Origin: a virus | IMG/VR virus record: IMGVR_UViG_3300045988_103765 | Reading direction: 5' to 3' (one strand) | Length of the DNA: 64,000 nt | Shown: piece after piece, positions 2,869-61,563 of the stretch | Numbering within the stretch: the first letter of the stretch is position 1 | Layout of the letters: each line of letters begins with the position of its first letter | Translations under genes and position numbers: made by a program | The notes under the pieces: generated by a model | Told to the model about the DNA's origin: nothing | Database searches by the model: none | The model's input: the letters and a program-made list of their open reading frames with translations, nothing else

Positions 2869-2876
2869 AAATAAAC

Positions 2877-2902
2877 TATTTAGTTCTAAGAGAACTTGGT
2901 AA
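2877..2902. repeat. Left arm of a perfect 26-nt inverted repeat flanking a 136-bp segment
   Basis: TATTTAGTTCTAAGAGAACTTGGTAA is the exact reverse complement of 3039..3064. It contains the internal palindrome AGTTCT-n3-AGAACT. Confidence 0.9.
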
Positions 2903-3038
2903 AAAACATGGCTTTGAGCTACCCGTAGCAGCATTGAAGCCGTTAACAACTCTCACTTTCTTTTTCATATCATTCTTCATAATACATTGTATCTTAAACT
3001 TTTACACAAAGGTAAACATAATTATCCACAAATGCAAG
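2903..3038. promoter_or_regulatory. Candidate invertible promoter segment between divergent paralogs A and B
   Basis: 136 bp bounded by 26-nt inverted repeats. The best -7 match, TACCTTTG, lies on the minus strand (3007..3014) facing paralog A. A weaker TGGCTTTG (2909..2916) faces paralog B. Also contains TTATCCACA (3022..3030). Confidence 0.45.
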
Positions 3039-3064
3039 TTACCAAGTTCTCTTAGAACTAAATA
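3039..3064. repeat. Right arm of the perfect 26-nt inverted repeat
   Basis: TTACCAAGTTCTCTTAGAACTAAATA ends 8 nt before the ATG at 3073. The left arm ends 8 nt before the ATG at 2868 on the other strand. Confidence 0.9.
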
Positions 3065-3072
3065 CTTGCGAT

Positions 3073-4239
3073 ATGTCAAATAGCGGAGGAAAGATTACAG
3101 CACCAGTAAGCATAGAAGATGTGCGTACTGTTTTAGGCGTTTCAAGCTATGACTTGGGTACACTGTGCAAGAGCGAGAAGATTAATATGTGGGCGAAGTA
3201 CAAACCGGTAAGAGTGCCGATGTTCAATGAACTTTATGAAAGCGAATTCAATGAAGCACAATATGGATTACACATACCTTCCTCTTCCTCGCTTGACAGC
3301 GTGATTAATACGCCATGGAGCCACGCAGCCCCAAGAGGCGGAGATTCAGAACCGTATCGGTTGACCGACTTTGATAAGTATAACCATGTATCGGAATTTA
3401 TAATTTCCGGAAATCTCAATCCGAAATATGACTGCAATTCTGAAACTGGTGATTTGTACATTGGTGCGTTGCTATGGGAAAGGTACGGGCAATACAATCT
3501 TAATGCTAAAGATTTGCCGTTATTGATGAAAATGCGGCTTGGCTTGCGGATTGACGGCAACAAAATACTTACAAGCAAGAAAACGGTAGCTGATGTGATA
3601 GGCGATAGCCAGTTATTGGCATGTGTACTAAATCCCAAAAGCGTAGGAAAATCGAGTTTTACGATTGAGCAGTTCCTAACGACCGAAAACTATCCTTCGT
3701 TATCCACATTTCCTACCGTAATACAATGCTATTCGGTTCCAAACTACACGGGAAAGACCAATTCGGCGGTAGTAAATTACACAGAAATCGGTAGCGGAAT
3801 CACGTTCAAAGACCAATACATGTCAAACGAACTCAACGGAGCGTACCAGACGGAAGATTATTACATGACTACGCCTTTTGTCGTATCTTATAACGGAGAT
3901 TATTCGGAGTATTGGAAGACTACATGTTCAAACAGTCGTAGTACGAAAGTTACCGTCAATGTGACAGATTTCACCTTCCACGGATATGATGTTAACGGAA
4001 ATCCAGAAACCGAGACATACAACGAAGATTTGAAGATGTACAATTCTAACAAACAGCAGGTCTATTCCGTAGACATACCTGCAAATGGCTCGGTGACTTT
4101 GTATTTTAAAACAAGAATGATTGGAAACAATTATTCGTCATATAACACTCGCACAAACGTGTTCTATGCAGAAGCAAAAATCAACGGTTACAATCAAAAT
4201 AGGATTATAAGGTTTGAACTTAATTACAGGTGCAATTAG
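3073..4239 (+). CDS. Putative receptor-binding / tail-associated protein, paralog B
   Basis: 388 aa. The N-terminus MSNSGGKITAPVSIEDVRTVLGVSSYDLGTLCKSEKINMWAKYKPV is shared with paralogs A and C. The C-terminus is divergent. Confidence 0.7.
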   Translation: MSNSGGKITAPVSIEDVRTVLGVSSYDLGTLCKSEKINMWAKYKPVRVPMFNELYESEFNEAQYGLHIPSSSSLDSVINTPWSHAAPRGGDSEPYRLTDFDKYNHVSEFIISGNLNPKYDCNSETGDLYIGALLWERYGQYNLNAKDLPLLMKMRLGLRIDGNKILTSKKTVADVIGDSQLLACVLNPKSVGKSSFTIEQFLTTENYPSLSTFPTVIQCYSVPNYTGKTNSAVVNYTEIGSGITFKDQYMSNELNGAYQTEDYYMTTPFVVSYNGDYSEYWKTTCSNSRSTKVTVNVTDFTFHGYDVNGNPETETYNEDLKMYNSNKQQVYSVDIPANGSVTLYFKTRMIGNNYSSYNTRTNVFYAEAKINGYNQNRIIRFELNYRCN

Positions 4240-4422: not shown

Positions 4423-4562
4423 TACCTCACTTGAACAGTTAGAAGAACATTTTAATGTTAGTGAAGCAGCGATAATTGAAGGGGACTTGAATGTAGAATC
4501 TTTCGATTGTCGCTCTTTGTGTGTGGTTGTGCTTGGTGCAGTAGTTGCGAAAGGAGGTAACT

Positions 4563-5717
4563 ATGAGTAATAGTGGAGGTAAAATAACTGCGCCAGTCAA
4601 TATAGCTACTGATATACCAGCCGTTCTTGGTATAAGTAGTACAGACTTAGGAACTCAATGTAAAAGTGATAGAGTAAATCAATGGTCTAAAAGAAAGCCT
4701 ATGGAATATAATTCTCCATTAGAGCTAAGTGAAGCTACAATGGCAAATAATCATTATGGTGTCTGGGCGTCAGTAGGAACAGATGTGGTATTATCTAACA
4801 ATACAATGAGAAGCTTTCCGTGGACGTATAAAAAACCTACAACATATTTTAGGGCAACAGACTTCAACGGATATTATCATAAGGCTGTACCGCCAATAGA
4901 ATTTACTTTTCCTAAAAAACTTACTATCACGGGAGGAGCAAGCGGTAATCTAATATCGGGAATTAATGCAGGATTTGATGATTTAGGTCAAAGCGGATGG
5001 AATACAGATTGTTTAAGTATAAAAGATGCTATCTATAGTGATACATTAAATTATAGATTTACAGTTTGCGTCTTAGCTAAAAGCTCAACCGGACAAGTAA
5101 AGAAATGGTATGTTACAGACAAAAAAACTTTAAAACAAAGATTTGATAGTAGGGACTATGGAGAGGTAGATGTAGACTTAAACCTTAAACAAGCAGGCAT
5201 TACACAAGGTATGTCTGCACAGCTATGCTATTTCCTATCAAACAACAATATACCAAATGGTGCTCCTTCTTTAACAATTACGGGAGATTGTACATCCTTA
5301 GAGTACACTCCGTATGCTTCTATTAGGTCTTATACAGTAGAATATACCTCACCAACAGCAGGACTGACAGCTACCATAGATTTTGACTTAAATAGCTATA
5401 CTGGAACAACATTCTATGTTACAAGGGTACATTATAAGATAACAAAGGATTCAAGCTATGTTCCTACTACATTCTATCTTGACATACAAGCAGAATTAGC
5501 ATCAGTCAAATGGATTTGGCTTGTAGAAAATATACAGCCAGTATTCAGTGGTAATGTTGCCGAAAGAACCTATTATACTTCGCAACTTCCTACTGACAAC
5601 ATGTTTGTTATGGATTATGCAGAACGGGATGAATTTTCTGTAGTCTTACGTTTTAATGACCCTGCTAATAGTTATACAGAAATATTAGCGACTGAAAATA
5701 AAGATGTGAATTGGTAG
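4563..5717 (+). CDS. Putative receptor-binding / tail-associated protein, paralog C
   Basis: Start moved to ATG 4563 (MSNSGGKITAPVNIATDIPAVLGISSTDLGTQCKSDRVNQWSKRKPM). It is preceded by AAGGAGG, which is unusual in this window. The C-terminus is divergent. Confidence 0.7.
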   Translation: MSNSGGKITAPVNIATDIPAVLGISSTDLGTQCKSDRVNQWSKRKPMEYNSPLELSEATMANNHYGVWASVGTDVVLSNNTMRSFPWTYKKPTTYFRATDFNGYYHKAVPPIEFTFPKKLTITGGASGNLISGINAGFDDLGQSGWNTDCLSIKDAIYSDTLNYRFTVCVLAKSSTGQVKKWYVTDKKTLKQRFDSRDYGEVDVDLNLKQAGITQGMSAQLCYFLSNNNIPNGAPSLTITGDCTSLEYTPYASIRSYTVEYTSPTAGLTATIDFDLNSYTGTTFYVTRVHYKITKDSSYVPTTFYLDIQAELASVKWIWLVENIQPVFSGNVAERTYYTSQLPTDNMFVMDYAERDEFSVVLRFNDPANSYTEILATENKDVNW

Positions 5718-14767: not shown

Positions 14768-14797
14768 ACTTGACGTTTCATCGAGCCACTACTTCTT
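14768..14797. repeat. Copy 2 of the perfect inverted repeat of at least 30 nt (partner 1..30)
   Basis: ACTTGACGTTTCATCGAGCCACTACTTCTT lies in the 171-nt intergenic leader upstream of the major tail gene. Confidence 0.9.
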
Positions 14798-14873
14798 AGG
14801 GAGCTTGCACTCCGGTCGTCCATAGTTGGGTTCTCACCGTCCAATCCCCGATGCGCCAGCGGTTGGATAATTT

Positions 14874-24802: not shown

Positions 24803-25182
24803 AAAAGGTTCTTCTCCTAATAATCCTTTTGCCTCTTTTGTTTTCATGCCGAACTGCAAAAGACTTGGAGAAAAATACAGAAATAAAAGAGATTATCAAA
24901 GAACGGCATGACACTTTAATGGTACACACAAGAGATAGTATCTATTTTTCTGTTATTCAAAAAGGCGATACTGTTTTTAATACTAAGTATATTGAAAAAA
25001 TCAAGTACATAGACAGAACAGTCATACAGAATGATACTATATATCAAGAGAAAGAAGTCATTAAGGAGAAAGAAGTCATTAAGAAGCATGTTCCATCATG
25101 GTGCTGGTGGCTTTTACTAATTAATGCAGCAATCATAGGAATAATCGGAATTAAATACTACGTAAAATGGCGAACGAAGTAA
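24799..25182 (+). CDS. Spanin-like lipoprotein with C-terminal TM (unimolecular spanin candidate)
   Basis: 127 aa. Signal peptide with lipobox LLFSC, and a C-terminal transmembrane segment WCWWLLLINAAIIGIIGIKYYV. Start and stop overlap the endolysin and the fibre gene. Confidence 0.5.
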   Translation: MKKVLLLIILLPLLFSCRTAKDLEKNTEIKEIIKERHDTLMVHTRDSIYFSVIQKGDTVFNTKYIEKIKYIDRTVIQNDTIYQEKEVIKEKEVIKKHVPSWCWWLLLINAAIIGIIGIKYYVKWRTK

Positions 25183-28100
25183 ACCCTATACTGAATATAT
25201 ACAATGAAGATGGCACTCCCTTCCACGACATCAGTTTGAGAAAACACACTTTCTCAACTATTGTTATGTCGTTAAATGACAAGATAGAAGGAGAGTTTTA
25301 TTATAAAGACAATTCACTTTCGTTTACTCTGCAAGAATATGTAGAGTATAAAGGAATAAAGTACATTCTTAAAAATCCTCCCGTAGTTGTTAGAAAAGGA
25401 ATGACTTCGGAAAACAGCGAGGCAAAGGGAATGACTAAATATAGTTGTACTTTCTACCATGAAATGATTGAATTGTACAACATTCCCTTTACTGACATTG
25501 CTATTAGTAGCAGTGAGGAAAGTTATCGCAGCGAAAAACGGACTTTCTCGTGGATTGGTACATTAAGCATGTTCGTTCAAAAAATCAACTCATGTCTTGT
25601 CGGAACTAAATGGACTTGCAAGTTACAGCCAACATTTGTAGATGATGGGACAATGAGTGATGTGTTATCATTCAGCAATCAATTTATTTCAGACGTTTGC
25701 AAGACTGCATACGAAACATGGAAAGTCCCATTTGTAGTTGATGGATATACTATTTGGTTTGGCAAGCCATCTAAGGAAATACTCGACGATGAAAACAAGC
25801 CATACATATTCAAATTCGGACAAGGTGTAGGACTGAAAAACAACGATTGCACACCAAAGAATAATAAGGTCATTACTCGTATTGCTGGATATGGTAGCAA
25901 CATTAATATTCCGTATGGCTATCCTATAATTACAGATGCAGACGGAAATCGCATTGAGCACCCATATACTCGTGACACGTTAATGCCATCAGTATATGTA
26001 GAGGCAGTTAGAAATAAAGTCTTGTTTGGTTCTAAAAAACCTCTTATTGACTACTATGACGCAGATAGCAGCTATCCTACTCCTATCAATCCTCTTGCAC
26101 CAGTATTCCATATCCAAGAATTTTCCAGCATACAACCTACTATTGAAGGTATGACATACAAGGGACAAGCTATTGACTTGTTCAAAGAAGTAATAGTACC
26201 AGAAGGTGGCTGGGATGATTATATTGACCCCGAAACGGGAGAGGTTAGACAGTCGTATTTTGATGTGACGCTTTATCCTCTTGGCTTTGACTTATATGCA
26301 CAAGCAGCAGTTACAAGTGGAATGACCTTCTCCATGAAGTCCGGTGACACATTAGGAGCTAACTACGAGGTAGCAGTAGATTGGGAAGATGTAAAAAAGA
26401 ACTTCTATGTAACTGATGAAGCTGGAAACATTGTATTCAAACCAAATGGAGAACAGAGGGACTATGCTAAATATCCAGACAGTACAGACCAAGCTATTAC
26501 TATTAAACTGACAAAGGACTTAGATACATTTGGTACGATAATGCCAAGCAAGTTCCAGCAAGTTAAAACTGGCGACAAGTTTGTCATATTGCACATTGAA
26601 ATGCCACAAGCATATATAGACAAGGCACAAGAACGTTTGGACGTCGCCATGAAAAGATATATGCTTGAAAATAATATGCCTTTGTATGACTATCCTTTGA
26701 GCTTCGACGAACACTTCTTGGAAACAAACCAAGCAATTCTTGCGCAGATTAAGCCTAATACTATTGTCAGATTCTTGTATAAAGACAATGAGGACGCTAT
26801 GGAATTATCCGTAAAGGAAATGTCAATCCAATATGGTACAAATCCCCTTCCTACTTATAATATTACCTTAACGGACGAAGTGTCTATTGTACTGAATCAG
26901 ATAGGACAGATAGCTGATGGACTTAGCAAGTTAGGAAGCCAAGTAGCACAGTTACAAGCTATTTATGGACTTGACATTGTAGGCGAACTGAACAAAAAAC
27001 TCAGCAGAGTTAAAGATGATACCGCACAAGGAATGATAACTTTCTTGCGTGGATTGAAAGTCGGTAGCTATGTGACCGGAAGTACGGGCGGTATATTCTA
27101 TGCAGATACAGACGGAAAATCACATGCAGAGCTTGATTATCTGACAGTAAGAATGAAAGCCATGTTCTATGCTTTGGAGATTATCAAGACCGGAGTTATC
27201 GGAGGTCGCCAAATGATTACTCCCGGTGGTGCAATCGAATGTATCAAGATAGAAGATAGAAATGATATACTTGACGAAGAAGGTAACAAGACTGGCGAGA
27301 ATGTTTGGGACTATTGGAGATGTTACTTCTATCAAGATGATGGTACAGAAGCGTTAGATAATCGTTTCCGCGCTGGGGATATGGCTTTAGCACAAGACTT
27401 CAATATTAAGGAGGGAGTTTATGAGAATGTGTCAAATCATTACTTCTGGCGTTTAGTCGTAAACGTAGGAACTAATTACATTGACATCTCAAAAACTGAT
27501 GCTGATGCAGCCAGTGATGCACCACGAGTAGGAGATACCATTTGCCAATTAGGTAATAAGACCTTTGTTGATGCAAATGGTGTTACTCATGTAGAGGACA
27601 AGACAAGACAGAATGCAATTATCTTTAGTGCAGTTGACACTTTCTCACCAAGTATGACTTTATATGCTGGCATAAACAGCTATTCATACCTCAACAAAGA
27701 GTATGTGTCCTATGGTGTTGATAAGACCACAAATCTCGCTTATATGAACGTCTATGGCAACTCTTATATCGGAGCAAGAGATAAGAGCAGCTATATGAAG
27801 TTTGATACGGTAACTGGTGTTGAGATAAAAGGTAAACTTGTAACTAAATCCGGCAAAGACGTTGAGGAAACATTCAACAGCTTTCAAGACCAGATAGATG
27901 GAGTAAAGGAAACTTGGTACGGAGAATATACACCAACTCTTACTAATCAGCCAGCAGTTGATTGGAACACAGAAGCTTTGAAAAAACGGCATGAAGGTGA
28001 TGTATTTACCAATATCCAAGAATATGTCGATGATGAAACTACTCCCGATGCAGGCAAATCATGGAGATGGGTAAAGACGGGAGATACATGGGGATGGAAG

Positions 28101-31100
28101 CAGATTGCAGATAATGACACTTCAAAGGCTTATCTTGAAGCAGCTAAAGCTCAAAAGGCAGCAGAAGAAGCTAAGAAAGAAGCCAATGACGCAAAGCAGA
28201 CTGTAACCAATATGAAAGACTTCACAGACGAAGCCTTTAAAGACGGTATTGTTGACAGACAAGAAGCTGCTGCGATTGAGAAATATTTGAACTCAATTAA
28301 ATCAATACAGAAGAGCGTAGCTGAATCTTATTCTAAGGTTTATGGTAATCCTTTATTGTCCGGTACTGCTAAGGTAGAACTAAAAACCGCTTATGATGGA
28401 TTTAATGTGGCAACTACCGAGCTTATTACTGCTATTGATGATGCCATAGCTGACGGAGTAGCTACCTCAACGGAAGTCGCTTTGGTAGATGGTAGGTACG
28501 ACACCTTCAATACCAAATATGGAGATTTTATAGCTTATTTGAATGCAGCCAACAACTTTATCCAAGACAAAATAAACACTTCCGCAGAAGATGCGAAGAA
28601 AGCTGCGGAAGAGGCTCAAAAGGCGGCAGATGCAGCTAAAGCAGAAGCGGAAGCAGCAAAACAAAGATTGGATAAGTGGGCAGAAGATGGAGTTATATCT
28701 CCTACTGAAAAACAATCAATCAAAGACGAGATAGTCCGCATAGACGCTGATAAGACTAATATTACAGCAGGATATACTTTGTATTCATTGGGTAGCCCTA
28801 CGGGTTATCTGAATGCTCATAGCAATTATCGTGCAGTGTTGGTTACATTATCTGCTTCTACTCCCGAAAATATAACTATACCTTCTGACTTCGCTTCAAA
28901 GCAATCTGCGTACTACAATCAACGAACGGCAGCTTTGAATGCCATCAGTGACGCAGCTAAGGCGGCAGTAGATACCGTTAAAAAAGACTTGGCTGGTTAT
29001 GAATATCTAAAGAAAGCGTGGAAAGAGAGTACCACAATCGAAGGTGGTGTTATTCAGAATGCGTTAAACATGCTGGGATATACTGACCCGGTAGCTGGAT
29101 TTAAAGTAATGTCCGGTATGAATGGTGTCTATGATGCTACTAAGGTCGGTGGAGGTATTGCTTCTTGGTATGGAGGTTCTATGAAGGATAGAGCAGATTA
29201 TACAGAAGCAAACATGCCATCAGATGTAGCAAAGGCTATCATTCGTATGGATGGCTCTGGCTACCTTGCAAGCGGTGCTGTATGGTGGGGGACTGATGGT
29301 GTTTTCCATGCTGACCCACAATCATTCATCATCAAAAAAAATCAGCTTGGCGACTATGTTTCTCTATTCCAGATTGTATATCGTTCTGGAACTCCGAAGA
29401 CTATTAGCTACATGATACCACAATATCCAATGCAGAAATTGACAGTTTCCGACTACATCGAAATAGGAACAACTGGGTATCGCATTGGAGTGGATAGTGC
29501 CAATAATGCTATTAAAGTCTACAAAGAAGATGGCTCGGCTGTTAACTTCTACGCAAGCGGTGCTGTATCTGCAAAAGGTATCAGTTCCGGTAGTGGCGGT
29601 GGAGGAGGCGGTCTTATTGACACCGTTTATGGATATTCAAGTTTAGGTGGCACTTTTGCTGATTCAACATTATCAGACACCTTTAACGCATACACTATCA
29701 ACAAGTTGGCAAGTAGAATTACTGAACTTGAAAAGAATGGTGGTGGAGGTACTGGCATTGCTGGTATCAAAGTTAACGACCAAACTTATGCGCCAGACAC
29801 AAGCAAGTATATTACGCTCCCAAACTACCCTTCCACTACTATTACTGGAACGGGAAATGTCCTTACCAACGCTACTTATGACAATAGTACGCGAGTACTG
29901 ACATTAACTAAAGGCAATATTGCTACTACCGCCAACCATTTAGAGAGATATGCTCAAATAACCTCTACTGCGATAGATACTGTATCTACATTTACAGCAT
30001 CTAAGACATCTGTATGGGAGGCAAATGGTACTGCATATGGAACTACTGGTGCTAATGATACTGTATTAAACATTGGTTCTGCGGCAAATAGGTTATTCCA
30101 ATTAAGAGCAGCCTATAATTCTGATGATTTTTACTTTAGAGGTGTTGGTGCAAGTTCTTTCAGAACTTGGTATAAAGTTCTGCACGAAGGTAACTACGCC
30201 TCTGCCTTAGATAGTAAATATCTGAAACTTTCTGGTGGAACATTGACGGGAGTACTAACTGTTGGAGATACTTCAACTATTGCAGAAGTAGTTACAATTA
30301 AAACAAGGAATGTAAATGGAAATCATATTCAATTTGTAAGTAATACAATACCTACAGCTGAAGTAGGATATCTTACGTCTTTTGGAGCTTACCTATACAA
30401 TGATAAACTTGATAGCCATCCTACATTATGTTTAGGATTAGCTGATAATTTAAGAGATGCTATAATATACAGATATGCAGGAGTTAATTATAATGTATGG
30501 CATTCCGGAAGTCTTAAACCATACCAATTCACTAATTGGGCTGATACAAAAAGCGTAAATCATGTGCCTAATGACTATGATAGTTTATTTATTATGAGAG
30601 GCATTAAGAATTTAACTACTATTGGGCTTTCCGGTGGTGGAGTTTATGCAACTGTATGGGGTTGGAGAGGATGGCTGGATAGAACTGGAGGGCATGCTTG
30701 GGAAATAGCTTCAACTAATGAAGATTTATATACTCGTCACGGAGAAACTACTTCTTGGACTTCGTGGGCAAAGATACTTAATAGCTCCAATTATCAAAAC
30801 TATCCAAATACAAAAGTAGGAATTAGCGACTTTTGGTTATACCCAGAACATAGTAATGAGATTAACTTTGGAGGCACATATACAGGTAGTAATCATATCT
30901 ACTTTGGATATCGTTCAAAAGATAATAGACCAAGAACTACTGAATATCATTTTGGGCAAAATGATGCAAGTTTACATGGGGAATATTTCCAGTCATATAT
31001 ACCTACTGGCACACAGCCGTTTCAGTGTGTATCTACTACTACGTGCACGAATTTGAATGCGGATATGGTAGACGGATATCATTCTAATGATTTAACTAAA

Positions 31101-32522
31101 AGGGTGTTTATCGCTGGAATATCCGGAGGTGCAGGTTCTAAATGGATAAGAATTGGTGTTTTAAAATATCCGGGTACAGGTGATTCTAACACTGTAATGA
31201 TAACTATATCGAATTCTTATTCATATTCAATGAATAGGTCTGTAACTTTTATAATATCATTGACACATCATGAAAGTAAACCTATAATAACACAATTGAA
31301 TGGTTATCCTGATCTATTTAAAGCAGTAAGAATTTTAGCTCCCAAAGACAGTAATGGAAGTTATACATATGGTGATAGATATGTAGACATATCCTATTCT
31401 ACTTCAGCTGCAAGTGAAGCATCCAATACTATTTATTTAACTGCTATAAATCTTAATTATAAGGATTCGTATCATTTTATTCCAAATAAAAACTTTGTAG
31501 ATGGAACAACTATTCCTTCTAATTATGGTGAAATATGGAATTTTCCTTTTACTACTGGCTTAGGTAGTAATGCTAATATATATTCACAAAATGGTTTGAT
31601 TGAGGGAGGGACTTTAAAACTAAGTTCTACAAGTACTTTTGCTGGTAAAGCTACATTCAACGGAGGGCTATCTGGAACATTGACGGGTTCTCTAAGTGGT
31701 AATGCTACAACCGCTACAACCTTACAGACTTCACGTACAATAAATGGTACATCGTTCAACGGTTCAGCTAATATTACAACTTCTTATTGGGGAACTACAA
31801 GAACGATTTGGGGACAGTCAGTAAACGGGTCGGCAAATGTCAGTGGAGCTATGACTGGGGTTACAAGCATTACTGCAACTGGTCTTATAAGAACTTCAAA
31901 TCTGTTCTCTGCTGGCGATGGAGGAAGCGATAATGCGTATGGTTATTATAACTGTACTCGTCCCAATACAGCTAATACCGGATATGTATGCTATGCAATG
32001 GTTAGAAGTGGTACTATAGCAATGGGACTTGGATATTATAATAATGAAATTGTTTTAGGTAATGCAGGTACTTCAAGACAATTTAATGAAAAATGGTTAC
32101 AAATAAGTGGTTCCAGATTACTAATTAATGGCAATATAGAGGCAACTGGCGCAGTTACAGCCAAGTCTTCCTCTTCTGACATAAGATTGAAGAAAAATAT
32201 CAAAGAATACAATGCTTTGGATATTATTCACAAGTTAAAGTCAGTGAAGTATTACTGGAATGATACCGCAAAAGCAAACTCTCCAATCTTTAATGACAAT
32301 GAGGAGCATTACGGACTTATTGCACAAGACTTGCTAATAAATGGATATAGCCAATGGGTAAGTAACTGTTTTAAAGATTATTATGTAATACAATACGAAC
32401 GTTTAATACCCGTATTATGGCGAGGTATTCAGCAAGTAGATAATGAGGTAGCTACCCTCAAAAAGAAGATAGCTACCTTAGAAAAAGAACTTAGTTCTGT
32501 AAAGAGGCAACTAAGCCTTTAA
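25167..32522 (+). CDS. Giant tail fibre / tail-tip protein with C-terminal S74-type intramolecular chaperone
   Basis: 2451 aa. Central coiled coil (AKAQKAAEEAKKEANDAKQ). Poly-Gly linkers (SGSGGGGGGL, KNGGGGTG). The C-terminus carries SSSDIRLKKNI...HYGLIAQDL followed by a coiled coil. Confidence 0.8.
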   Translation: MANEVNPILNIYNEDGTPFHDISLRKHTFSTIVMSLNDKIEGEFYYKDNSLSFTLQEYVEYKGIKYILKNPPVVVRKGMTSENSEAKGMTKYSCTFYHEMIELYNIPFTDIAISSSEESYRSEKRTFSWIGTLSMFVQKINSCLVGTKWTCKLQPTFVDDGTMSDVLSFSNQFISDVCKTAYETWKVPFVVDGYTIWFGKPSKEILDDENKPYIFKFGQGVGLKNNDCTPKNNKVITRIAGYGSNINIPYGYPIITDADGNRIEHPYTRDTLMPSVYVEAVRNKVLFGSKKPLIDYYDADSSYPTPINPLAPVFHIQEFSSIQPTIEGMTYKGQAIDLFKEVIVPEGGWDDYIDPETGEVRQSYFDVTLYPLGFDLYAQAAVTSGMTFSMKSGDTLGANYEVAVDWEDVKKNFYVTDEAGNIVFKPNGEQRDYAKYPDSTDQAITIKLTKDLDTFGTIMPSKFQQVKTGDKFVILHIEMPQAYIDKAQERLDVAMKRYMLENNMPLYDYPLSFDEHFLETNQAILAQIKPNTIVRFLYKDNEDAMELSVKEMSIQYGTNPLPTYNITLTDEVSIVLNQIGQIADGLSKLGSQVAQLQAIYGLDIVGELNKKLSRVKDDTAQGMITFLRGLKVGSYVTGSTGGIFYADTDGKSHAELDYLTVRMKAMFYALEIIKTGVIGGRQMITPGGAIECIKIEDRNDILDEEGNKTGENVWDYWRCYFYQDDGTEALDNRFRAGDMALAQDFNIKEGVYENVSNHYFWRLVVNVGTNYIDISKTDADAASDAPRVGDTICQLGNKTFVDANGVTHVEDKTRQNAIIFSAVDTFSPSMTLYAGINSYSYLNKEYVSYGVDKTTNLAYMNVYGNSYIGARDKSSYMKFDTVTGVEIKGKLVTKSGKDVEETFNSFQDQIDGVKETWYGEYTPTLTNQPAVDWNTEALKKRHEGDVFTNIQEYVDDETTPDAGKSWRWVKTGDTWGWKQIADNDTSKAYLEAAKAQKAAEEAKKEANDAKQTVTNMKDFTDEAFKDGIVDRQEAAAIEKYLNSIKSIQKSVAESYSKVYGNPLLSGTAKVELKTAYDGFNVATTELITAIDDAIADGVATSTEVALVDGRYDTFNTKYGDFIAYLNAANNFIQDKINTSAEDAKKAAEEAQKAADAAKAEAEAAKQRLDKWAEDGVISPTEKQSIKDEIVRIDADKTNITAGYTLYSLGSPTGYLNAHSNYRAVLVTLSASTPENITIPSDFASKQSAYYNQRTAALNAISDAAKAAVDTVKKDLAGYEYLKKAWKESTTIEGGVIQNALNMLGYTDPVAGFKVMSGMNGVYDATKVGGGIASWYGGSMKDRADYTEANMPSDVAKAIIRMDGSGYLASGAVWWGTDGVFHADPQSFIIKKNQLGDYVSLFQIVYRSGTPKTISYMIPQYPMQKLTVSDYIEIGTTGYRIGVDSANNAIKVYKEDGSAVNFYASGAVSAKGISSGSGGGGGGLIDTVYGYSSLGGTFADSTLSDTFNAYTINKLASRITELEKNGGGGTGIAGIKVNDQTYAPDTSKYITLPNYPSTTITGTGNVLTNATYDNSTRVLTLTKGNIATTANHLERYAQITSTAIDTVSTFTASKTSVWEANGTAYGTTGANDTVLNIGSAANRLFQLRAAYNSDDFYFRGVGASSFRTWYKVLHEGNYASALDSKYLKLSGGTLTGVLTVGDTSTIAEVVTIKTRNVNGNHIQFVSNTIPTAEVGYLTSFGAYLYNDKLDSHPTLCLGLADNLRDAIIYRYAGVNYNVWHSGSLKPYQFTNWADTKSVNHVPNDYDSLFIMRGIKNLTTIGLSGGGVYATVWGWRGWLDRTGGHAWEIASTNEDLYTRHGETTSWTSWAKILNSSNYQNYPNTKVGISDFWLYPEHSNEINFGGTYTGSNHIYFGYRSKDNRPRTTEYHFGQNDASLHGEYFQSYIPTGTQPFQCVSTTTCTNLNADMVDGYHSNDLTKRVFIAGISGGAGSKWIRIGVLKYPGTGDSNTVMITISNSYSYSMNRSVTFIISLTHHESKPIITQLNGYPDLFKAVRILAPKDSNGSYTYGDRYVDISYSTSAASEASNTIYLTAINLNYKDSYHFIPNKNFVDGTTIPSNYGEIWNFPFTTGLGSNANIYSQNGLIEGGTLKLSSTSTFAGKATFNGGLSGTLTGSLSGNATTATTLQTSRTINGTSFNGSANITTSYWGTTRTIWGQSVNGSANVSGAMTGVTSITATGLIRTSNLFSAGDGGSDNAYGYYNCTRPNTANTGYVCYAMVRSGTIAMGLGYYNNEIVLGNAGTSRQFNEKWLQISGSRLLINGNIEATGAVTAKSSSSDIRLKKNIKEYNALDIIHKLKSVKYYWNDTAKANSPIFNDNEEHYGLIAQDLLINGYSQWVSNCFKDYYVIQYERLIPVLWRGIQQVDNEVATLKKKIATLEKELSSVKRQLSL
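31623..31641. repeat. Left 19-nt core of the inverted repeat inside the fibre gene (candidate crossover site)
   Basis: AGTTCTACAAGTACTTTTG, in frame as S S T S T F (fibre codons 2153-2158). Its exact inverted copy lies at 33510..33528. Confidence 0.9.
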
Positions 32523-33567
32523 GCCTATTAATCTCTGATTTAGCATGTTCCAATTCCTTTCTCATTCGTTCTTGCTCTGATTCAACAAGACGGATAGAAA
32601 GGATATTGGCTTGCACAGAACCAATGATTGTTGCGGTAAGGTCGGGAGATAAATAATTCAAGCTACCATATCCATATTCATCCTTTTCGTGACAGAAATT
32701 TGTGATACCAGCTTTCACCGCATTTTGATATACAAGTCCGGTATGACGTTTATTGTCTATCCTATCTTGGTATAAATCCAATGCTTTTTTGTTATAATTA
32801 TAGTCATAAACTCTGCCAAGTTTTAGTAGTCTTTCTCGGTAATCTATAAGCCCATCGTAATTCTCTTTTAATCTAAAGTCAGAAGTAGCTTTAGCGGTGA
32901 TTGCAGCCGTAGCAGTAATACTTCCAGTAAAAGCCCATGTACTACCATCATATTCCATAACATACGATTTATTTGTAGAGCTTGTCGGGTTAGCAGTACC
33001 TCTCCACCAATGCCACAAACCATTTGAATGACAGCCAAGTCCCATTGTATAATTACCTCCAACAATTTCAATGCTATCATGGCTTGTATTTGCAAATCTT
33101 GCTCCTACATTATAAGCCTTAGCACCACTTCCAGTTATTCCCGTACTATTTATCCAACCATGTAGGGTGCAATCTCCAAATTCCATATTTGCCCAAGATG
33201 AACTGCTTCCTGCCCGCCAATACCATTTTTTAGGAACAGACCTACCGCCATAACTTGCACCTCTATAATTAACATGAAACTCAGTGCCTCCAGCTATAAT
33301 AATCTCATTTCCACCGCTTGAAAGTTCCAAATAAGAACCATTTTGGGTTATACCAGATGGATTCATATAAAGACCAGAATTAGCATAGACCCAAGCTTGA
33401 ATATACGCATCTATAAATCTATTGCTACTTGAACCTATTCTGTAATTATTATTGCTTAACGGAAAGATATTACCAGAATACATTCCACCATTAAAAGTTG
33501 CAGTTTCACCAAAAGTACTTGTAGAACTAAGGTTTGTATCAAATTGGTAGCCAGATATTTGGTGCTT
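32491..33567 (-). other. Start-less alternative tail-fibre C-terminal cassette (convergent, inverted)
   Basis: The minus-strand frame is open from just after TGA (33568..33570) to the stop at 32491. It begins with fibre-homologous TNLSSTSTFGETATFNGG. It ends with its own S74-like module (TSDFRLKENY...HTGLVYQNA) plus a coiled coil. There is no N-terminal anchor domain. The 3' end overlaps the fibre gene by 32 nt. Confidence 0.7.
33510..33528. repeat. Right 19-nt core (inverted) of the candidate crossover site
   Basis: CAAAAGTACTTGTAGAACT is the reverse complement of 31623..31641 and sits in the same codon phase on the minus strand. Confidence 0.9.
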
Positions 33568-33581
33568 TCAAAAAAACACCT

Positions 33582-33589
33582 TATTTTTG
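33582..33589 (+). promoter_or_regulatory. Bacteroides-type -7 box TATTTTTG
   Basis: Perfect TAnnTTTG, 16 nt upstream of the ATG at 33606. Preceded by the hairpin GGTGCTTT-caaa-AAACACC (33561..33580). Confidence 0.45.
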
Positions 33590-33605
33590 CACATAACAAA
33601 TTGAT

Positions 33606-34346
33606 ATGAATATGAAGTTTAGAGATTACATTGACCTTGCAGAAAAGTATGAGGTAGAGAGTTTTATCAAGTCTGACCCTATACAATTCCCACGAAGATT
33701 TAAGGATAGAAAAGACATCGAAGTAGCGGCAGTCATAGCAGCTTGGCTTGCTTATGGCAGGCGTTCAGTATTCATTCCCAAAATAGATTATATTCTTACA
33801 GAGATAATGGGGAATAAGCCTTTTCAATATATATATGGCGTGGAATGGAATAAATACAAGGATAATTATACGAGCTTATACCGTATGACTTCTTGGCATT
33901 GCTTTGCTTCCCTTTGTGATAAACTTCATTCCATATACATGAAGTACCCTAATCTTGAAGATGCTCTTGGACGTGTTACTTATTCGCAGAAATGTACCTA
34001 CTATTGCCAAGGATTATGCCATTTATTACATGGTGAAACAATGATACCCAGTCCAAACAGTAATTGTGCAAATAAAAGAGTGAACATGCTACTTAGATGG
34101 ATGATAAGGAAAGATAGTGTAGTTGACATTGGATTATGGAAAACTCTATCACCTTCTCGGCTTCTTGTTCCTTGTGATACACATTCTTTGCAGTCGGCAG
34201 TTGAATTTGGAATTATCCCCAAAGTAGATGAATCAAGAAAGACTTGTATAAAAGTGACTGAATTTGCAAAAAAAGTATTTCCTTCTGACCCTGCAAGGTT
34301 GGATTTTAGTTTGTATGGCTATGGAGTGGAGAAATCAGAGAAATAA
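33606..34346 (+). CDS. DUF2400 / TIGR02757-family protein (HhH-GPD-like fold)
   Basis: 246 aa. The segments AAVIAAWLAYGRR and RVNMLLRWMIRKDSVVDIGLWKTLSPSRLLVPCDTHS match my recollection of the DUF2400 signature (nmfLRWMvR..vDlGlW...L.iPlDtH). Confidence 0.6.
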   Translation: MNMKFRDYIDLAEKYEVESFIKSDPIQFPRRFKDRKDIEVAAVIAAWLAYGRRSVFIPKIDYILTEIMGNKPFQYIYGVEWNKYKDNYTSLYRMTSWHCFASLCDKLHSIYMKYPNLEDALGRVTYSQKCTYYCQGLCHLLHGETMIPSPNSNCANKRVNMLLRWMIRKDSVVDIGLWKTLSPSRLLVPCDTHSLQSAVEFGIIPKVDESRKTCIKVTEFAKKVFPSDPARLDFSLYGYGVEKSEK

Positions 34347-40701: not shown

Positions 40702-41550
40702 TTACTTCTTGCTACCAACGTTTTCATCAACTATTTTAGCATCATCAAACATTGCTGCTACCTTTGATGCTTTATCCTTATCAATCAAAGGCTCGTCACC
40801 AGCAACATCTACATAATCCGGAGTATCTGCACTGCGGAATATAGCTTGGTCATCCCGTATAGCATTCTGCATTTCAACTGACAATGGAGCTTTCCGAGAT
40901 AAGTGCAACTTAATTATGGTCTTTCGGCACATTTCATGGAAATCAGTTACCCATTTTGAACTGTCACGCACATTAGCATACTGACTTTTATATGTCTGCG
41001 AATAGCGCAGACCGTGAGCTTTCAGTTCCTCTACTGACATATATAATGTGCTCTCAAATCCGTTCAAAAGCTGGAAGTAAGATACATAACCGATAATGGG
41101 AAGTTCAGAACGCCTTTTATCGTCTTGTTCAAAATTAAAATCTATTTGACCCGTCAATCGGTTGCGGTTTATAAGCTCTCCTTCTCGTACATCTGTACAA
41201 TTAATGCACTTGAACTGACCGCTTCGCAATGCCAACTGCACATAAGCCTTATACCCAATCTGAAATTGCGCTTCCGTAATACCTAACTTATTGTTCTTGT
41301 AAGGTATCAGATAAGCACAACCGAAAGATGGGTCAAGCGGCAAATCGGATGCAGTAGCACGAATAGCACCATACATAAGCGTTGCTGGCTCACATTCCTG
41401 CAATTTTGCATTGTTAGCTACTAAAGATACCAAGTTGCTTACAAAAGCATCCTTTTTATCACTCAATACCTTTTTCAAATACTCTTGGGTTGCATTGTGG
41501 GATATGTAGCTATTCAGCCTTTGCAATCCCGTTACTTTGTTCTCGCTCAT
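40702..41550 (-). CDS. recT: RecT-family single-strand annealing protein
   Basis: 282 aa. The segment GCAYLIPYKNNKLGITEAQFQIGYKAYVQLALRSGQF is RecT-like. It is adjacent to the exonuclease and SSB genes. Confidence 0.75.
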   Translation of the reverse strand: MSENKVTGLQRLNSYISHNATQEYLKKVLSDKKDAFVSNLVSLVANNAKLQECEPATLMYGAIRATASDLPLDPSFGCAYLIPYKNNKLGITEAQFQIGYKAYVQLALRSGQFKCINCTDVREGELINRNRLTGQIDFNFEQDDKRRSELPIIGYVSYFQLLNGFESTLYMSVEELKAHGLRYSQTYKSQYANVRDSSKWVTDFHEMCRKTIIKLHLSRKAPLSVEMQNAIRDDQAIFRSADTPDYVDVAGDEPLIDKDKASKVAAMFDDAKIVDENVGSKK

Positions 41551-52174: not shown

Positions 52175-52774
52175 ATGGATAATAGCAATAATGAGATATG
52201 GAAAGATATTATTGGATTTGAGCAATATTATCAAGTAAGCAATTTAGGTCGTGTTAGAAGCAAAGATAGAATTGTCATAACTCCTAAAACTTCTTATTTT
52301 AAAAAAGGAAGAATATTAATTCCTTCTTTAGATGGCAAAGGAAATTATTTATTTGTAGGTCTACATGTTAACAATAAAGTTAAACTTATCTATATTCATA
52401 GATTGGTTGCTCAGAATTTTATACCAAATCCTCACAACTATAAGCAAGTTAACCATATCAATGAAAATAAAAAAGATAATAGGGCAGATAATTTAGAATG
52501 GTGTACAGCTGAATATAATATGAACTATGGTACAGCCATGCAAAGGGCGAAAGAAACCTATGCTTCACATTATGATAGGAGTGCTATTGCTAAAAATAAT
52601 GCTATTAAAAAGAAAGTTATACAATATACACTTGATGGCAAGTATATTAAAGAATGGGATTCTTTAACAGATATACAAAATGAATTAGGCTTTTGCAGAA
52701 GCAATATCTCAAAATGTTGTGAAGGGAAGTATAAACAAGCTAATAACTTTATATGGAAATTTAAAAAAGATTGA
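52175..52774 (+). CDS. HNH homing endonuclease (NUMOD4 + HNH + IENR1-like)
   Basis: 199 aa. EIWKDIIGFEQYYQVSNLGRVRS is a NUMOD4 motif. HRLVAQNFIPNPHNYKQVNHINENKKDNRADNLEW is an HNH motif. The C-terminus has a helix-turn-helix, WDSLTDIQNELGFCRSNISKCCEGK. Confidence 0.8.
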   Translation: MDNSNNEIWKDIIGFEQYYQVSNLGRVRSKDRIVITPKTSYFKKGRILIPSLDGKGNYLFVGLHVNNKVKLIYIHRLVAQNFIPNPHNYKQVNHINENKKDNRADNLEWCTAEYNMNYGTAMQRAKETYASHYDRSAIAKNNAIKKKVIQYTLDGKYIKEWDSLTDIQNELGFCRSNISKCCEGKYKQANNFIWKFKKD

Positions 52775-52776
52775 TT

Positions 52777-53595
52777 ATGAAAAAGTTTGTATCATGGAGA
52801 AGGGTTTCTACCATATATCAAAAGAAAACCGGGTTGGGTCTTGAATCACAAAAAAATATAATAAATCATTTTGTTCAAATAGAAAACGGAACTTTAATAG
52901 CTGACTTTTGCGAAGTATATACGGGTAAGGACCTAAATGAATGCACTGAATTAAGGAAGGCAATATCTTTTGCAAAAGAAAATAATGCAATATTAATAAT
53001 AGCTAAAACTGACCGATTTAGAAATACGGTTGAAGCATTACAAATATATGACGAAATGGGAGAAGGAAATATTTATTTTTGTGATATTCCACATACAGAC
53101 AAATTTACCCTTACCTTATTTTTCGCTTTGGCAGAAAGGGAAGCTTTATTAGTATCTATAAGAACAAAGGCAGCTTTAGCGGTGAATAAAGCAAAAGGCA
53201 TACTATCTGGACGTGCTAATAGTAATTATCAAATTAAAGATGAAACAAAAGAAAAAGCTATTCTCAAAGGGGCTATTACAAAAAATAAAGCTACGATTGA
53301 AAGTGAAGAATTTTCTTGTTTCTGTAGAATACTACGAAAAGTGATACCTATACTGAATGAAAATTCTACGGATGAAGAACTATTCTTCTTAAACTGGACT
53401 AAATACCGTACAAGTTTTGTCCTTACTAAAGATTACAAAGCGGAAATAAAGGAACTCATGCAGGAAGCTAATAGGAACAACAGCAAACTGTTTATCGGAG
53501 TTGACTTCACGAATGCTAATTTTTATCAGTATATTAGTAGCCGCGTACAAGCTACGTTCAATTCAATTTCTAAATACAAAGAATATAACTTATGA
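52777..53595 (+). CDS. Small serine recombinase (resolvase/invertase family catalytic domain)
   Basis: Start at ATG 52777. WRRVSTIYQ carries the catalytic Ser (YxRVSTxxQ pattern). Also contains ILIIAKTDRFRNT (DRxxR) and ALAEREALLVSIRTKAAL (E-helix). The C-terminal ~110 aa match no helix-turn-helix I can recognise. Confidence 0.7.
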   Translation: MKKFVSWRRVSTIYQKKTGLGLESQKNIINHFVQIENGTLIADFCEVYTGKDLNECTELRKAISFAKENNAILIIAKTDRFRNTVEALQIYDEMGEGNIYFCDIPHTDKFTLTLFFALAEREALLVSIRTKAALAVNKAKGILSGRANSNYQIKDETKEKAILKGAITKNKATIESEEFSCFCRILRKVIPILNENSTDEELFFLNWTKYRTSFVLTKDYKAEIKELMQEANRNNSKLFIGVDFTNANFYQYISSRVQATFNSISKYKEYNL

Positions 53596-59074: not shown

Positions 59075-59257
59075 ATGACTGAAAAGATATTTAAAAAAGA
59101 AGACAAGATTTATAGACTTACTTGCGAATTAATTATAGAATATAATAAGGTAAGTTATAGATTAAATCTTACATGGAGAATGAAAGGAAAGCATAGATGG
59201 TGGGTATTGCCCGGATATTATGAATGCAGCCTATCAGATGTTGTGTTGGGTGATTGA
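59075..59257 (+). CDS. Hypothetical protein (60 aa) whose 3' end runs into repeat copy 1 out of frame
   Basis: The last 15 codons lie in the duplicated 3' fragment of the 60979 gene but are read in another frame (PGYYECSLSDVVLGD). Confidence 0.35.
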   Translation: MTEKIFKKEDKIYRLTCELIIEYNKVSYRLNLTWRMKGKHRWWVLPGYYECSLSDVVLGD

Positions 59258-59552
59258 AAACGGACATTTAGAAACAGACAAGTAATGATATGGAACGAAT
59301 AGTAGAATTAAGAGGATTAGAAGGAGTATATTGTAGTGATGTAGTTCATGCTTATATGTCTTGCAATGCAGAAGACGTTCAAAAAGCTTTGGAGATTGGG
59401 ATTCCATGTACTGGAGCAAATGACTACGGAGCGTATAACATCTATTTTGACGATTACGGAAGAATATGTTTTGAATATATGCAACGTTGTGTAACAAGAG
59501 AATACAGATACGTTGAATCAATAGAAGAGGCTATAGACTGGATGAATAGGTT
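59211..59552 (+). repeat. Direct repeat copy 1 (342 nt, identical to 61222..61563)
   Basis: The offset is 2011 nt. Identity is supported by identical translations in two overlapping frames (plus-strand 93-aa ORFs and minus-strand 95-aa ORFs) and by direct reading of the ends. Confidence 0.85.
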
Positions 59553-60978: not shown

Positions 60979-61296
60979 ATGTGTTGGCATGATGAATGCT
61001 ACCCAAATATATCAGAAGATATGAAGTATAATTATGGACGATGCTATGTAAAACTTGGGAATTTAATTGGCTGCTTTCCTGCTTATACCTTGCAGGACAT
61101 CATACAGAGGTTACCGCCCTCTATCAATATATGTATGCTGCATATATATCCTGCTGCTGACTTGTGGTATTTCGTGTACATGGATTCTTACACCCGTACT
61201 ATTCTAAGCACGAAGTATAGTCCGGATATTATGAATGCAGCCTATCAGATGTTGTGTTGGGTGATTGAAAACGGACATTTAGAAACAGACAAGTAA
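60979..61296 (+). CDS. Hypothetical protein (105 aa), paralog of 58408..58851, probably 5'-truncated by a frameshift
   Basis: The upstream 25-codon ORF (60915..60992, MDEKFKKKYGIYDGIDTSAFKYVLA) aligns with the paralog N-terminus (LGVDISKGSMVW). Removing one T in GTGTTGG would join the two frames. Confidence 0.5.
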   Translation: MCWHDECYPNISEDMKYNYGRCYVKLGNLIGCFPAYTLQDIIQRLPPSINICMLHIYPAADLWYFVYMDSYTRTILSTKYSPDIMNAAYQMLCWVIENGHLETDK

Positions 61297-61563
61297 TGAT
61301 ATGGAACGAATAGTAGAATTAAGAGGATTAGAAGGAGTATATTGTAGTGATGTAGTTCATGCTTATATGTCTTGCAATGCAGAAGACGTTCAAAAAGCTT
61401 TGGAGATTGGGATTCCATGTACTGGAGCAAATGACTACGGAGCGTATAACATCTATTTTGACGATTACGGAAGAATATGTTTTGAATATATGCAACGTTG
61501 TGTAACAAGAGAATACAGATACGTTGAATCAATAGAAGAGGCTATAGACTGGATGAATAGGTT
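61222..61563 (+). repeat. Direct repeat copy 2 (342 nt)
   Basis: See 59211..59552. Confidence 0.85.

Follow-up and report, generated by a model that had tools for sequence, protein, structure and literature searches.

An invertible segment predicted to exchange self-chaperoned tips at the end of a giant tail-fibre gene in Bacteroides siphoviruses

We analysed a 64,000-nucleotide (nt) stretch of viral DNA, IMG/VR record IMGVR_UViG_3300045988_103765 (hereafter the window), in which a tail-fibre gene encoding 2451 amino acids (aa) meets a converging reading frame on the minus strand. The segment at 31623-33528, at the 3' end of this giant gene, is very probably a genuine invertible segment that flips recurrently; it would be acted on in trans by a phage serine recombinase and would serve to hedge bets on the receptor. 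The segment was found inverted in the closest isolate, the relatives were split about evenly between the two orientations, and an inversion of the same size, at the same locus and in the same phage group, arose in near-clonal phage stocks during purification passages (PMC9727126). These findings support the tip swap, similar to that of the Mu G segment, which an earlier analysis of the same DNA (the original prediction) had put forward as its principal reading. Judged by its sequence, the window phage belongs to the C3 "Meggiephage" group, as a siphovirus with Bacteroides uniformis as its host. The window region was ~94% identical to Bacteroides phage C3_41T2LP (OR296439.1, here L001), which has a genome of 74.4 kilobases (kb), was isolated in Slovenia on B. 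uniformis MB20-41 and is the sole C3 isolate genome in GenBank. It is the reference of the C3 cluster, siphoviruses whose tail is unusually long and bears a terminal fibril (PMC9727126). The evidence for switching was drawn from this isolate, the contigs of relatives, one metagenome assembly and the published C3 stocks.

RESULTS

Two tips converge between inverted copies of one core

The 19-nt core AGTTCTACAAGTACTTTTG (= AGTTCTACAAGTACTTTT(G)) occurred exactly twice in the window, at 31623-31641 on the plus strand and inverted at 33510-33528, exact and in phase as had been claimed. Only these two copies were found when two mismatches were allowed, and none of 100 dinucleotide-preserving shuffles gave two or more core matches. 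The core is part of an extended imperfect inverted repeat whose 51-nt arms (31616-31666 and 33485-33535) are 76% complementary. Both arms read it in the same codon phase, AGT TCT ACA AGT ACT TTT (SSTSTF), so that recombination between them would swap the last 299 aa of the fibre for 345 aa in frame. By eye, the core may be divided into 8 + AA + 8 around an inner TAC/GTA dyad, or taken to hold the palindrome AAGTACTT, and comparison of junctions mapped the crossover only to within the 18-nt core.

The remaining anatomy given in the original prediction was largely borne out. This was true of the coordinates of the fibre gene (25167..32522) and of the minus frame (32491..33567), of the in-frame TGA at 33568-33570, of the 32-nt tail-to-tail overlap between the two frames, of the outcome of a flip (2152 + 345 aa in place of 2152 + 299 aa, in frame) and of the statement that the arms differ mainly at third codon positions, where 8 of the 12 differences downstream of the core were located. 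The fibre segment LKLSSTSTFAGKATFNGG had been placed at residues 2151-2168 and actually occupies residues 2150-2167, LKLSSTSTF beginning at 2150. From 33567 the minus frame runs without interruption as far as the stop codon at 32491-32493, and its first ATG comes at 33483. An overlap of 32 nt between the tip frames was also present in C3_41T2LP. The segment holds no open reading frame (ORF) beyond the two tips, and hence no separate assembly gene of the U/U' type.

The tip now joined to the fibre is called tip B here, and that of the minus strand tip A. The two were 27% identical over 201 aa (E 0.013), mostly in their C-terminal chaperone parts, and a PDB sequence search with both gave no match. 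Tip B matched PF13884 (Peptidase_S74, the intramolecular chaperone known from endosialidases and T5 pb1) with an E value of 8.7e-13 (48.8 bits versus a cut-off of 22), which confirmed the S74 module predicted for it. The module predicted for tip A scored 19.3 bits (E 1.4e-3), under the Pfam cut-off of 22 bits, and is backed by two other lines of evidence. Its S-D-x-R-L-K-x-N and H-x-G-L motifs align with the S74 region of tip B, and crAss-like phages encode "peptidase" proteins to whose C-terminus its residues 117-344 were 37-40% identical. Each cassette therefore appears to carry its own S74-type chaperone, and the homology of tip A to the crAss-like proteins indicates that modules of a tip plus a chaperone are common to unrelated Bacteroides phage families. 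The crAss-like matches were to the ~1549-aa "peptidase" of cr112_1 and cr106_1 (NC_055881.1 48715-53364, L209; NC_055871.1 7677-8312).

The segment is inverted in C3_41T2LP

A comparison of related genomes for both orientations had been set beforehand as a test of the prediction, and C3_41T2LP was found to carry the segment inverted. Positions 31686-33535 of the window aligned to 11469-9620 of L001, on the opposite strand and with 98.1% identity, while both flanks were collinear. The "tail protein" of C3_41T2LP, 2498 aa in length, reads ...LKLSSTSTF-GETATFNGGMYSGNIF...LQN, which is the window shaft followed by the minus-strand cassette of the window, and the junctions of the two genomes changed partner exactly at the core. 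On the minus strand (L001 10633-12000), C3_41T2LP carries a variant of tip B with two extra tandem repeats of ~82 aa (246 nt; ...NGSANITTSYWGTTRTFYINDPSGAHYNSYSVNGSGNV...), from which it follows that the length of the tip varies with repeat number. L004, L006 and L009 had further length variants, of 358-394 aa. If the window genome were flipped in the same manner, its junctions would be expected to read ...TTTAAAACTA-core-GGTGAAACTG and ...ACAAACCTT-core-GCTGGTAAAG.

Published stocks of the C3 group provide further evidence. Hedžet, Rupnik and Accetto isolated nine C3 phages that were 2-10 single-nucleotide polymorphisms (SNPs) apart, and the inversion of ~2 kb in the tail fibre arose among these near-clonal stocks during plaque purification (Sci Rep 2022, PMC9727126).

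Both orientations recur among the relatives

Relatives were collected by a protein-seeded scan of IMG/VR, which gave 25 loci, and by a scan of metagenome contigs for the exact core, which gave 61 stretches, ~35 of them from the C3-type phage group and the remainder chance matches in unrelated environments. The relatives, like the window, had one inverted core pair, and the loci with both cores were in the orientation of the window in 9 cases and in the opposite orientation in 11. When the tips were clustered, tip A (345 aa) was present 15 times on the long-fibre scaffold and 13 times on the far end, and tip B (299-362 aa) 16 and 14 times, respectively. With the far-end types designated X and R, the window being of type R, the paired states were long-A/X-B (7), long-B/X-A (5), long-B/R-A (4, window included) and long-A/R-B (2). 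On a neighbour-joining tree of 19 segments of the A/B class, the state required at least 5 changes by Fitch parsimony, and segments that were 0.26-0.4% apart were found in opposite states (L023/L012, L030/L013 and L075/L013). Across whole flanks, the best identity for an opposite-orientation pair from IMG/VR was 97-98%, with none above 98%.

Across 27 genomes found by protein homology, 48 of the 50 junctions had the core exact over 18 nt, and the flanking codons varied at synonymous sites. The perfect 19-nt core of the original prediction thus holds within the window, and 18 nt of it are conserved across the family. Because homologous exchange would need only that the two copies match each other, the retention of the same 18 nt across lineages points to a recognised site.

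Both orientations were also detected within a single assembly. The opening 125 nt of the 80-kb contig OIFB01000023.1, comprising the 5' end of tip B and the core, recur identically near the contig end; at the start they run into the long fibre and at the end into 108 nt of sequence from a short fibre, a second scaffold described below. Read in reverse complement, these terminal 108 nt are identical to sequence located 1.9 kb further upstream, which is there joined to tip A. The short-fibre scaffold is therefore joined to tip A and to tip B, for which reads of both orientations were needed in one assembly. The repeat lengths of 125/126 nt would match an assembly graph built with k=127. Contig ends close to the core were also found in L010, L025, L054 and L048, 29-108 nt away, and a list of ends within ~30-125 nt adds L069; by our estimate, chance would place ~1 per ~100 ends so near the core.

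A shufflon was considered as a reading of this locus and rejected because only two cores are present and a shufflon, such as R64 Rci, p15B Min or Rin, needs at least three crossover sites. Some tips were chimeric, having either a B-like start and an A-type chaperone end (208 aa; L016, L020-L022, L054 and L056) or, in L043 (361 aa), an A head and a B-type chaperone end. These chimeras indicate that recombination has also occurred between cassettes, near the boundary between head and chaperone.

Many relatives carry a second, short-fibre scaffold

In many relatives, the far core was located inside a complete 817-aa minus-strand gene made up of a 518-aa scaffold, SSTSTF and a tip (L013 7856..10309). 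Because the far core there lies within a second complete fibre gene, a flip makes the long and the short fibre trade tips. The short-fibre scaffold had no orthologue in the window or in C3_41T2LP. The window flank at 33529-33605 instead follows the leader of the short-fibre gene collinearly as far as "...ACAAACYTT AGTTCT", past which the relatives have a degenerate core, AGTTCTTTCAGAACTTGG (12 of 18 positions), followed by 1.6 kb of scaffold. This degenerate third core lies at the 5' end of the short-fibre gene in direct orientation to the true core (X-type; L013 10370-10390 (-) and its equivalent in L012). The architecture of the window corresponds to a 1.6-kb deletion between the degenerate and the true core, with the breakpoint in their common AGTTCT (window 33529-33535). 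The invertase was rejected as the cause of this deletion, since the breakpoint falls in the first 6 nt of the core, off-centre, and microhomology fits better.

As a result of the deletion, which removed the short-fibre scaffold, the far tip of the window is a start-less silent cassette. The claim that the cassette lacks a start and an anchor thus stands for the window, with the correction that the flank is a leftover short-fibre leader and not random DNA. On comparison with the relatives, the Mu-like silent cassette is a derived state of the window lineage. Both tips of the window are intact. Among 13 genomes with a deleted scaffold, the silent cassette was truncated or split by a TnpB element in 5, and the tip of the long fibre was always intact. 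In L004 (8252-9589 (-)) and L027 (8240-9577 (-)), the silent tip A cassette is split by an intact 445-aa TnpB with HTH_OrfB_IS605, OrfB_IS605 and Cas12f1-like TNB domains.

A divergent serine recombinase is the candidate enzyme

No invertase gene adjoins the segment, as had been stated in the original prediction, but a serine recombinase gene, the only one in the window, is located 19 kb away at 52777-53595. Its 272-aa product matched PF00239 (Resolvase) with an E value of 3.4e-11 (43.9 bits versus a cut-off of 23.3) and PHROG 125, "DNA invertase", at 2e-15; a match to the Mpi family of NCBIfam was weak (E 9e-4 over 58 residues), and a Pfam search gave no helix-turn-helix match. The orthologous recombinase is labelled "integrase ... 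dna-invertase (Phyre2)" in an annotation table from 2022 (PMC9727126). Residues R9-V10-S11-T12, Q15 and D79-R80 were invariant across 38 homologues. An AlphaFold 2 model with a mean predicted local distance difference test (pLDDT) score of 89.7 matched the catalytic domains of resolvase, Sin and TP901-1-type enzymes, to which the fold of the protein is thus predicted to belong.

Of the 25 related contigs, 15 had a homologue of the recombinase; among the 8 with a length of at least 70 kb, 7 did. Phages with the core carry two clades of the enzyme, which were 86% identical in the C-terminal domain and 39% identical in the catalytic domain, and other homologues had the reverse pattern of domain conservation. 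The conserved C-terminal domain fits a tie to the invariant core, and the difference between the two halves suggests a localised swap of half of the gene. We give the recombinase at 52777-53595, acting in trans, a somewhat better than even chance of being the enzyme that inverts the segment.

A P0111-type recombinase, which has a different C-terminal domain, was considered as a stand-in in those switch contigs that lacked a match, but it was absent from them and belongs to other phages. The distant homologue P0009 had early genes as its neighbours, and the nearest 10 kb contained no fibre. A gene for an HNH/NUMOD homing endonuclease (52175-52774) abuts the recombinase gene.

DISCUSSION

Two converging, unrelated tip modules, each consisting of a head with what appears to be its own S74-type chaperone, lie between inverted cores of 18/19 nt. 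Recombination within the core inverts 1.9 kb and thereby decides which tip the 2152-aa shaft carries in frame, tip B of 299 aa as at present or tip A of 345 aa; relatives have intact in-frame fibres of both kinds. In the mechanism that we propose, the exchange would be conservative site-specific recombination, catalysed in trans by the serine recombinase of the phage. Its purpose would be to hedge bets on the receptor that is recognised, plausibly as an answer to the phase-variable Bacteroides surface. A switch in receptor-binding specificity is the natural reading of the unrelated heads, of their distal position on the fibre and of modules common to crAss-like phages.

Programmed inversion of tail fibres has been textbook material since Mu and P1, and the documented cases are few and come mostly from enterobacterial phages. 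The segment has a working principle like that of the Mu G and P1 C switches and lacks an adjacent Hin/Gin-type invertase and separate assembly genes. As in Mu G/Gin, P1 C/Cin and e14 Pin, it is bounded by short inverted repeats inside fibre coding sequence. As in Mu and P1, the N-terminal part is constant and continues in frame into one or the other of two converging C-terminal parts, a folding helper accompanies every variable part, the unexpressed part (in the architecture of the window) has no start or anchor, and the likely catalyst belongs to the serine family. The differences are considerable. The folding helper of Mu and P1 is a separate gene (U/U'), whereas here it appears to be a fused S74 domain of the self-cleaving type. 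The invertase of those phages is ~190 aa in length, adjacent, and has a short Hin/Gin-type helix-turn-helix, whereas the candidate here is 272 aa in length, 19 kb distant, and has a helical C-terminal domain that found no match. Recombination in Mu and P1 takes place at 26-bp sites of the gix/cix type with a 2-bp crossover and requires an enhancer and Fis; a Fis/enhancer mechanism would not be expected in a Bacteroides host. Also unlike Mu and P1, the fibre is a single giant 2451-aa protein of a siphovirus, and in many relatives each end of the segment falls inside a complete gene.

Other known systems resemble the segment in part. Mavrich et al. (2018, PMC6109161) described the Rin shufflon of Bifidobacterium prophages together with a second, recombinase-less inverted locus, and raised the supply of an invertase in trans for a phage locus. 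Like Rin and p15B Min, the segment varies the C-terminus of a receptor-binding protein by inversion at short intragenic repeats, and in phages of gut bacteria. Rin acts at 11-bp sites through a tyrosine recombinase encoded next to them and has several cassettes, and p15B Min is a multi-segment shufflon, whereas the window has one segment with two cores and two cassettes and a serine recombinase as candidate. The master serine invertase Mpi of Bacteroides fragilis acts in trans on distant inverted repeats, which is the mode proposed here. It flips promoters of host surface-polysaccharide loci, whereas here coding sequence flips, and we take its recognition sites to be unrelated to the phage core.

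The original prediction had known of no description of such a switch. This was only partly correct, as the inversion itself was reported by the 2022 study of the C3 group, in one sentence and with a dot-plot method; the anatomy and mechanism are absent there, since that study gives no core, in-frame exchange, chaperone cassettes or second scaffold, makes no link to a recombinase and includes no metagenome survey (PMC9727126). Our literature search found no further paper on this inversion. The inversion is therefore backed by experiment and already noted in print, and what is new here is the core, the frame logic, the cassettes, the candidate enzyme and the architecture of two scaffolds.

Several observations weigh against the interpretation of a dedicated, phage-encoded receptor switch. 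Spot assays on the strain panel of the C3 study gave the same hosts for both orientations (PMC9727126), so an effect on host range is undemonstrated. These negative assays could possibly be reconciled with a switch if what the tips tell apart are the phase-variable capsule types of a single strain, beyond the resolution of an assay at strain level. The breakage of the silent cassette in 5 of 13 deleted-scaffold genomes indicates that the switch is not always maintained. The survey total of ~45 related contigs and the counts taken from it are approximate, as some contigs may be redundant assemblies of one phage. For the recombinase, the helical C-terminal domain (residues 155-271, ~110 aa, confident in the model) had no structure match in the PDB, phmmer found no relative of the protein in the PDB, and one 108-kb contig carries the switch yet has no match to the recombinase. 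Its family, with 971 homologues, is widespread among the early genes of gut phages without a nearby fibre; given this breadth and the distance of 19 kb, the enzyme may have another role, and the conservation of its C-terminal domain may reflect plain ancestry with a replaced N-terminal half.

The main rival holds that the segment is flipped not by a dedicated invertase but by homologous or single-strand-annealing recombination, through a phage RecT and YqaJ-like exonuclease or host RecA, and that the serine recombinase has another job. The window has a RecT gene (40702-41550) adjoining a gene whose C3_41T2LP orthologue is annotated as YqaJ recombinase, and the homology of the arms extends past the core, over 51 nt at 76%. 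The chimeric tips indicate that general recombination acts at the locus, flank variants such as L2 resemble gene conversion there, and the breakpoint of the 1.6-kb scaffold deletion lies in the 6-nt microhomology AGTTCT and not at the centre of the core; the occurrence of the recombinase family in phages without a nearby fibre is in keeping with this route as well. However, the 18 nt that were exact in 48 of 50 junctions include six synonymous positions and stand between flanks that were 72-90% identical, and every junction changed partner exactly at the core. In addition, an identity of 18-19 nt is very short for efficient homologous inversion, yet the segment flips within a few laboratory passages. 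We consequently regard the homologous route as unlikely.

A second rival assigns the flip to an invertase of the Bacteroides host acting in trans, either an Mpi-like serine or a Tsr-type tyrosine recombinase. It is established that Bacteroides genomes carry global invertases acting on distant sites (cited in PMC6109161); no recombinase gene adjoins the segment, and the Mpi match of the phage enzyme is weak. Against this, the phage has its own serine recombinase, which is kept in most near-complete relatives, and the core was tied to no host invertase site in this analysis, which compared phage sequences. We consider a host enzyme improbable, and more so than the homologous route.

According to a third rival, the minus frame is an independent gene that encodes a free 330-aa virion or accessory protein. 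The ATG at 33483 does open a 330-aa ORF, C3_41T2LP has a "hypothetical protein" annotated at the corresponding position in GenBank, and the flank at 33529-33605, a conserved short-fibre leader, could retain a promoter. This start is not conserved, however, as the first ATG is ~75 codons in when tip B occupies the far position, and the start given in GenBank for the "hypothetical protein" of C3_41T2LP is an internal Met of the repeat. The free product would have no shaft or anchor, and the contrast between the far cassette, damaged in 5 of 13 such genomes, and the ever-intact tip of the long fibre likewise argues against an independent role. No sigma-70-like site was found upstream of the cassette, nor, by eye, a Bacteroides TAnnTTTG motif; a scan of 31400-33900 for sigma-70 promoters and terminators, with a tool that does not cover Bacteroides promoters, gave fewer sites than shuffles. 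An independent gene is accordingly a very improbable reading. Finally, we give next to no credence to an old fixed polymorphism or an assembly artefact without present switching, even though opposite-orientation IMG/VR pairs lack whole-length flanks more than 98% identical and short-read assemblers can mis-join at repeats, since the inversion arose among isolates 2-10 SNPs apart, the segment tree needs at least 5 changes of state with segments 0.26% apart in opposite states, both junction types occur with identical sequence in one assembly, and a core far shorter than assembly k-mers cannot by itself produce mis-joins.

Returning to the phage-driven switch, a wider reading can be offered tentatively, and we would not yet rely on it. 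These siphoviruses of Bacteroides, a widespread family in the human gut, may use a small, divergent serine recombinase in trans to swap self-chaperoned tips reciprocally between fibre genes of ~2400 aa and 817 aa, where no tip is turned on or off; this exchange would be ancestral and would counter the phase-variable capsules of the host, and the silent cassette of the window would be a secondary, decaying derivative.

Tail-fibre inversion is now placed in a cultivable group of Bacteroides phages and in dozens of metagenomic relatives, and Bacteroides is among the most abundant gut genera. Its build is distinctive in the self-chaperoned cassettes, in a recombinase that is not adjacent and in the exchange between two complete fibre genes in many genomes. 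Because the isolate C3_41T2LP and its host exist, the system is testable; it could reveal by what means gut phages keep up with hosts whose surface constantly changes, and could explain why host-range assays at strain level may miss such effects. The results also provide a warning for annotation, in that a switch of this type can be signalled by an ORF labelled "hypothetical protein" that converges on a fibre gene, or by a contig that breaks where a fibre ends.

OTHER FEATURES OF THE WINDOW

The features of the segment and its surroundings are collected in Table 1. Neighbours of the invertible segment include DUF2400 and a DnaA-C-like protein, among others.

Table 1. Features of the invertible segment, its flanks and the candidate enzyme (window coordinates)
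Feature	Position	Strand	Basis or remark
Long tail-fibre gene, current state (constant part + tip B)	25167..32522	+	2451 aa; orthologue "tail protein" in OR296439.1; PHROG tail-fibre families match C-terminus
Constant N-terminal fibre part, 2152 aa, outside segment	25167..31622	+	Collinear with C3_41T2LP up to core
Left core AGTTCTACAAGTACTTTT(G), residues 2153-2158 SSTSTF	31623..31641	+	Exact inverted copy at 33510-33528
Left arm, extended imperfect inverted repeat	31616..31666		51 nt, 76% complementary
Tip B head, now joined to fibre, to tip Ser185 before S74	31642..32177	+	Translation; tip B on all scaffold types in relatives
Tip B S74-type intramolecular chaperone (SD-IRLKKNI ... HYGLIAQDL ... 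C-terminal helix)	32178..32519	+	PF13884 E 8.7e-13
Tail-to-tail overlap of tip frames, inside segment	32491..32522		32 nt, ORF coordinates
Tip A head, silent cassette, ~215 aa from core	32884..33509	-	Expressed fibre end in C3_41T2LP, 98.6% identity
Tip A probable S74-type chaperone (SD-FRLKENY ... HTGLVYQNA ... C-terminal helix)	32494..32883	-	PF13884 E 1.4e-3, under cut-off; alignment to tip B
Right core, inverted copy	33510..33528	-	Exact-match and repeat searches
Right arm, extended imperfect inverted repeat	33485..33535		Repeat search
Dead-end flank, remnant 5' leader of deleted short-fibre gene	33529..33605	-	Collinear with 817-aa short-fibre leader of relatives; TGA 33568-33570
Candidate invertase, 272-aa serine recombinase (RRVST ... 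KTDRFRN)	52777..53595	+	PF00239 3.4e-11; PHROG 125 2e-15

Other repeats were seen elsewhere in the window. A perfect 30-nt inverted repeat, AAGAAGTAGTGGCTCGATGAAACGTCAAGT, is present at 1-30 and 14768-14797, the copies being 14.7 kb apart, and the copy at the start may run on past the edge of the window. About 110 nt around this repeat (~14768-14870; L001 12180-12285) correspond to the 3' end of a TnpB gene of the IS605 family that is intact in L013 (11999-12820). The copies resemble what TnpB elements dispersed between genes would leave behind as solo right ends (omega-RNA-like); an Rfam scan of the window matched no family anywhere. A direct repeat of 300 nt with 99% identity (59204-59503 and 61215-61514) has its copies 2 kb apart in the early-gene region.

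Three ORFs of ~390 aa each near the start of the window, at 1774-2949 (-), 3073-4239 (+) and 4545-5717 (+), had no Pfam match, and their identification as integrases was dropped for this reason. A 134-nt inverted repeat (72%; 2769-2902 and 3039-3172) extends across the divergent starts of the first two, which may, given this repeat, be paralogues. A perfect 18-nt tandem duplication, GAGAAAGAAGTCATTAAG x2, was located at 25048-25083, in the ORF immediately 5' of the start of the fibre gene.

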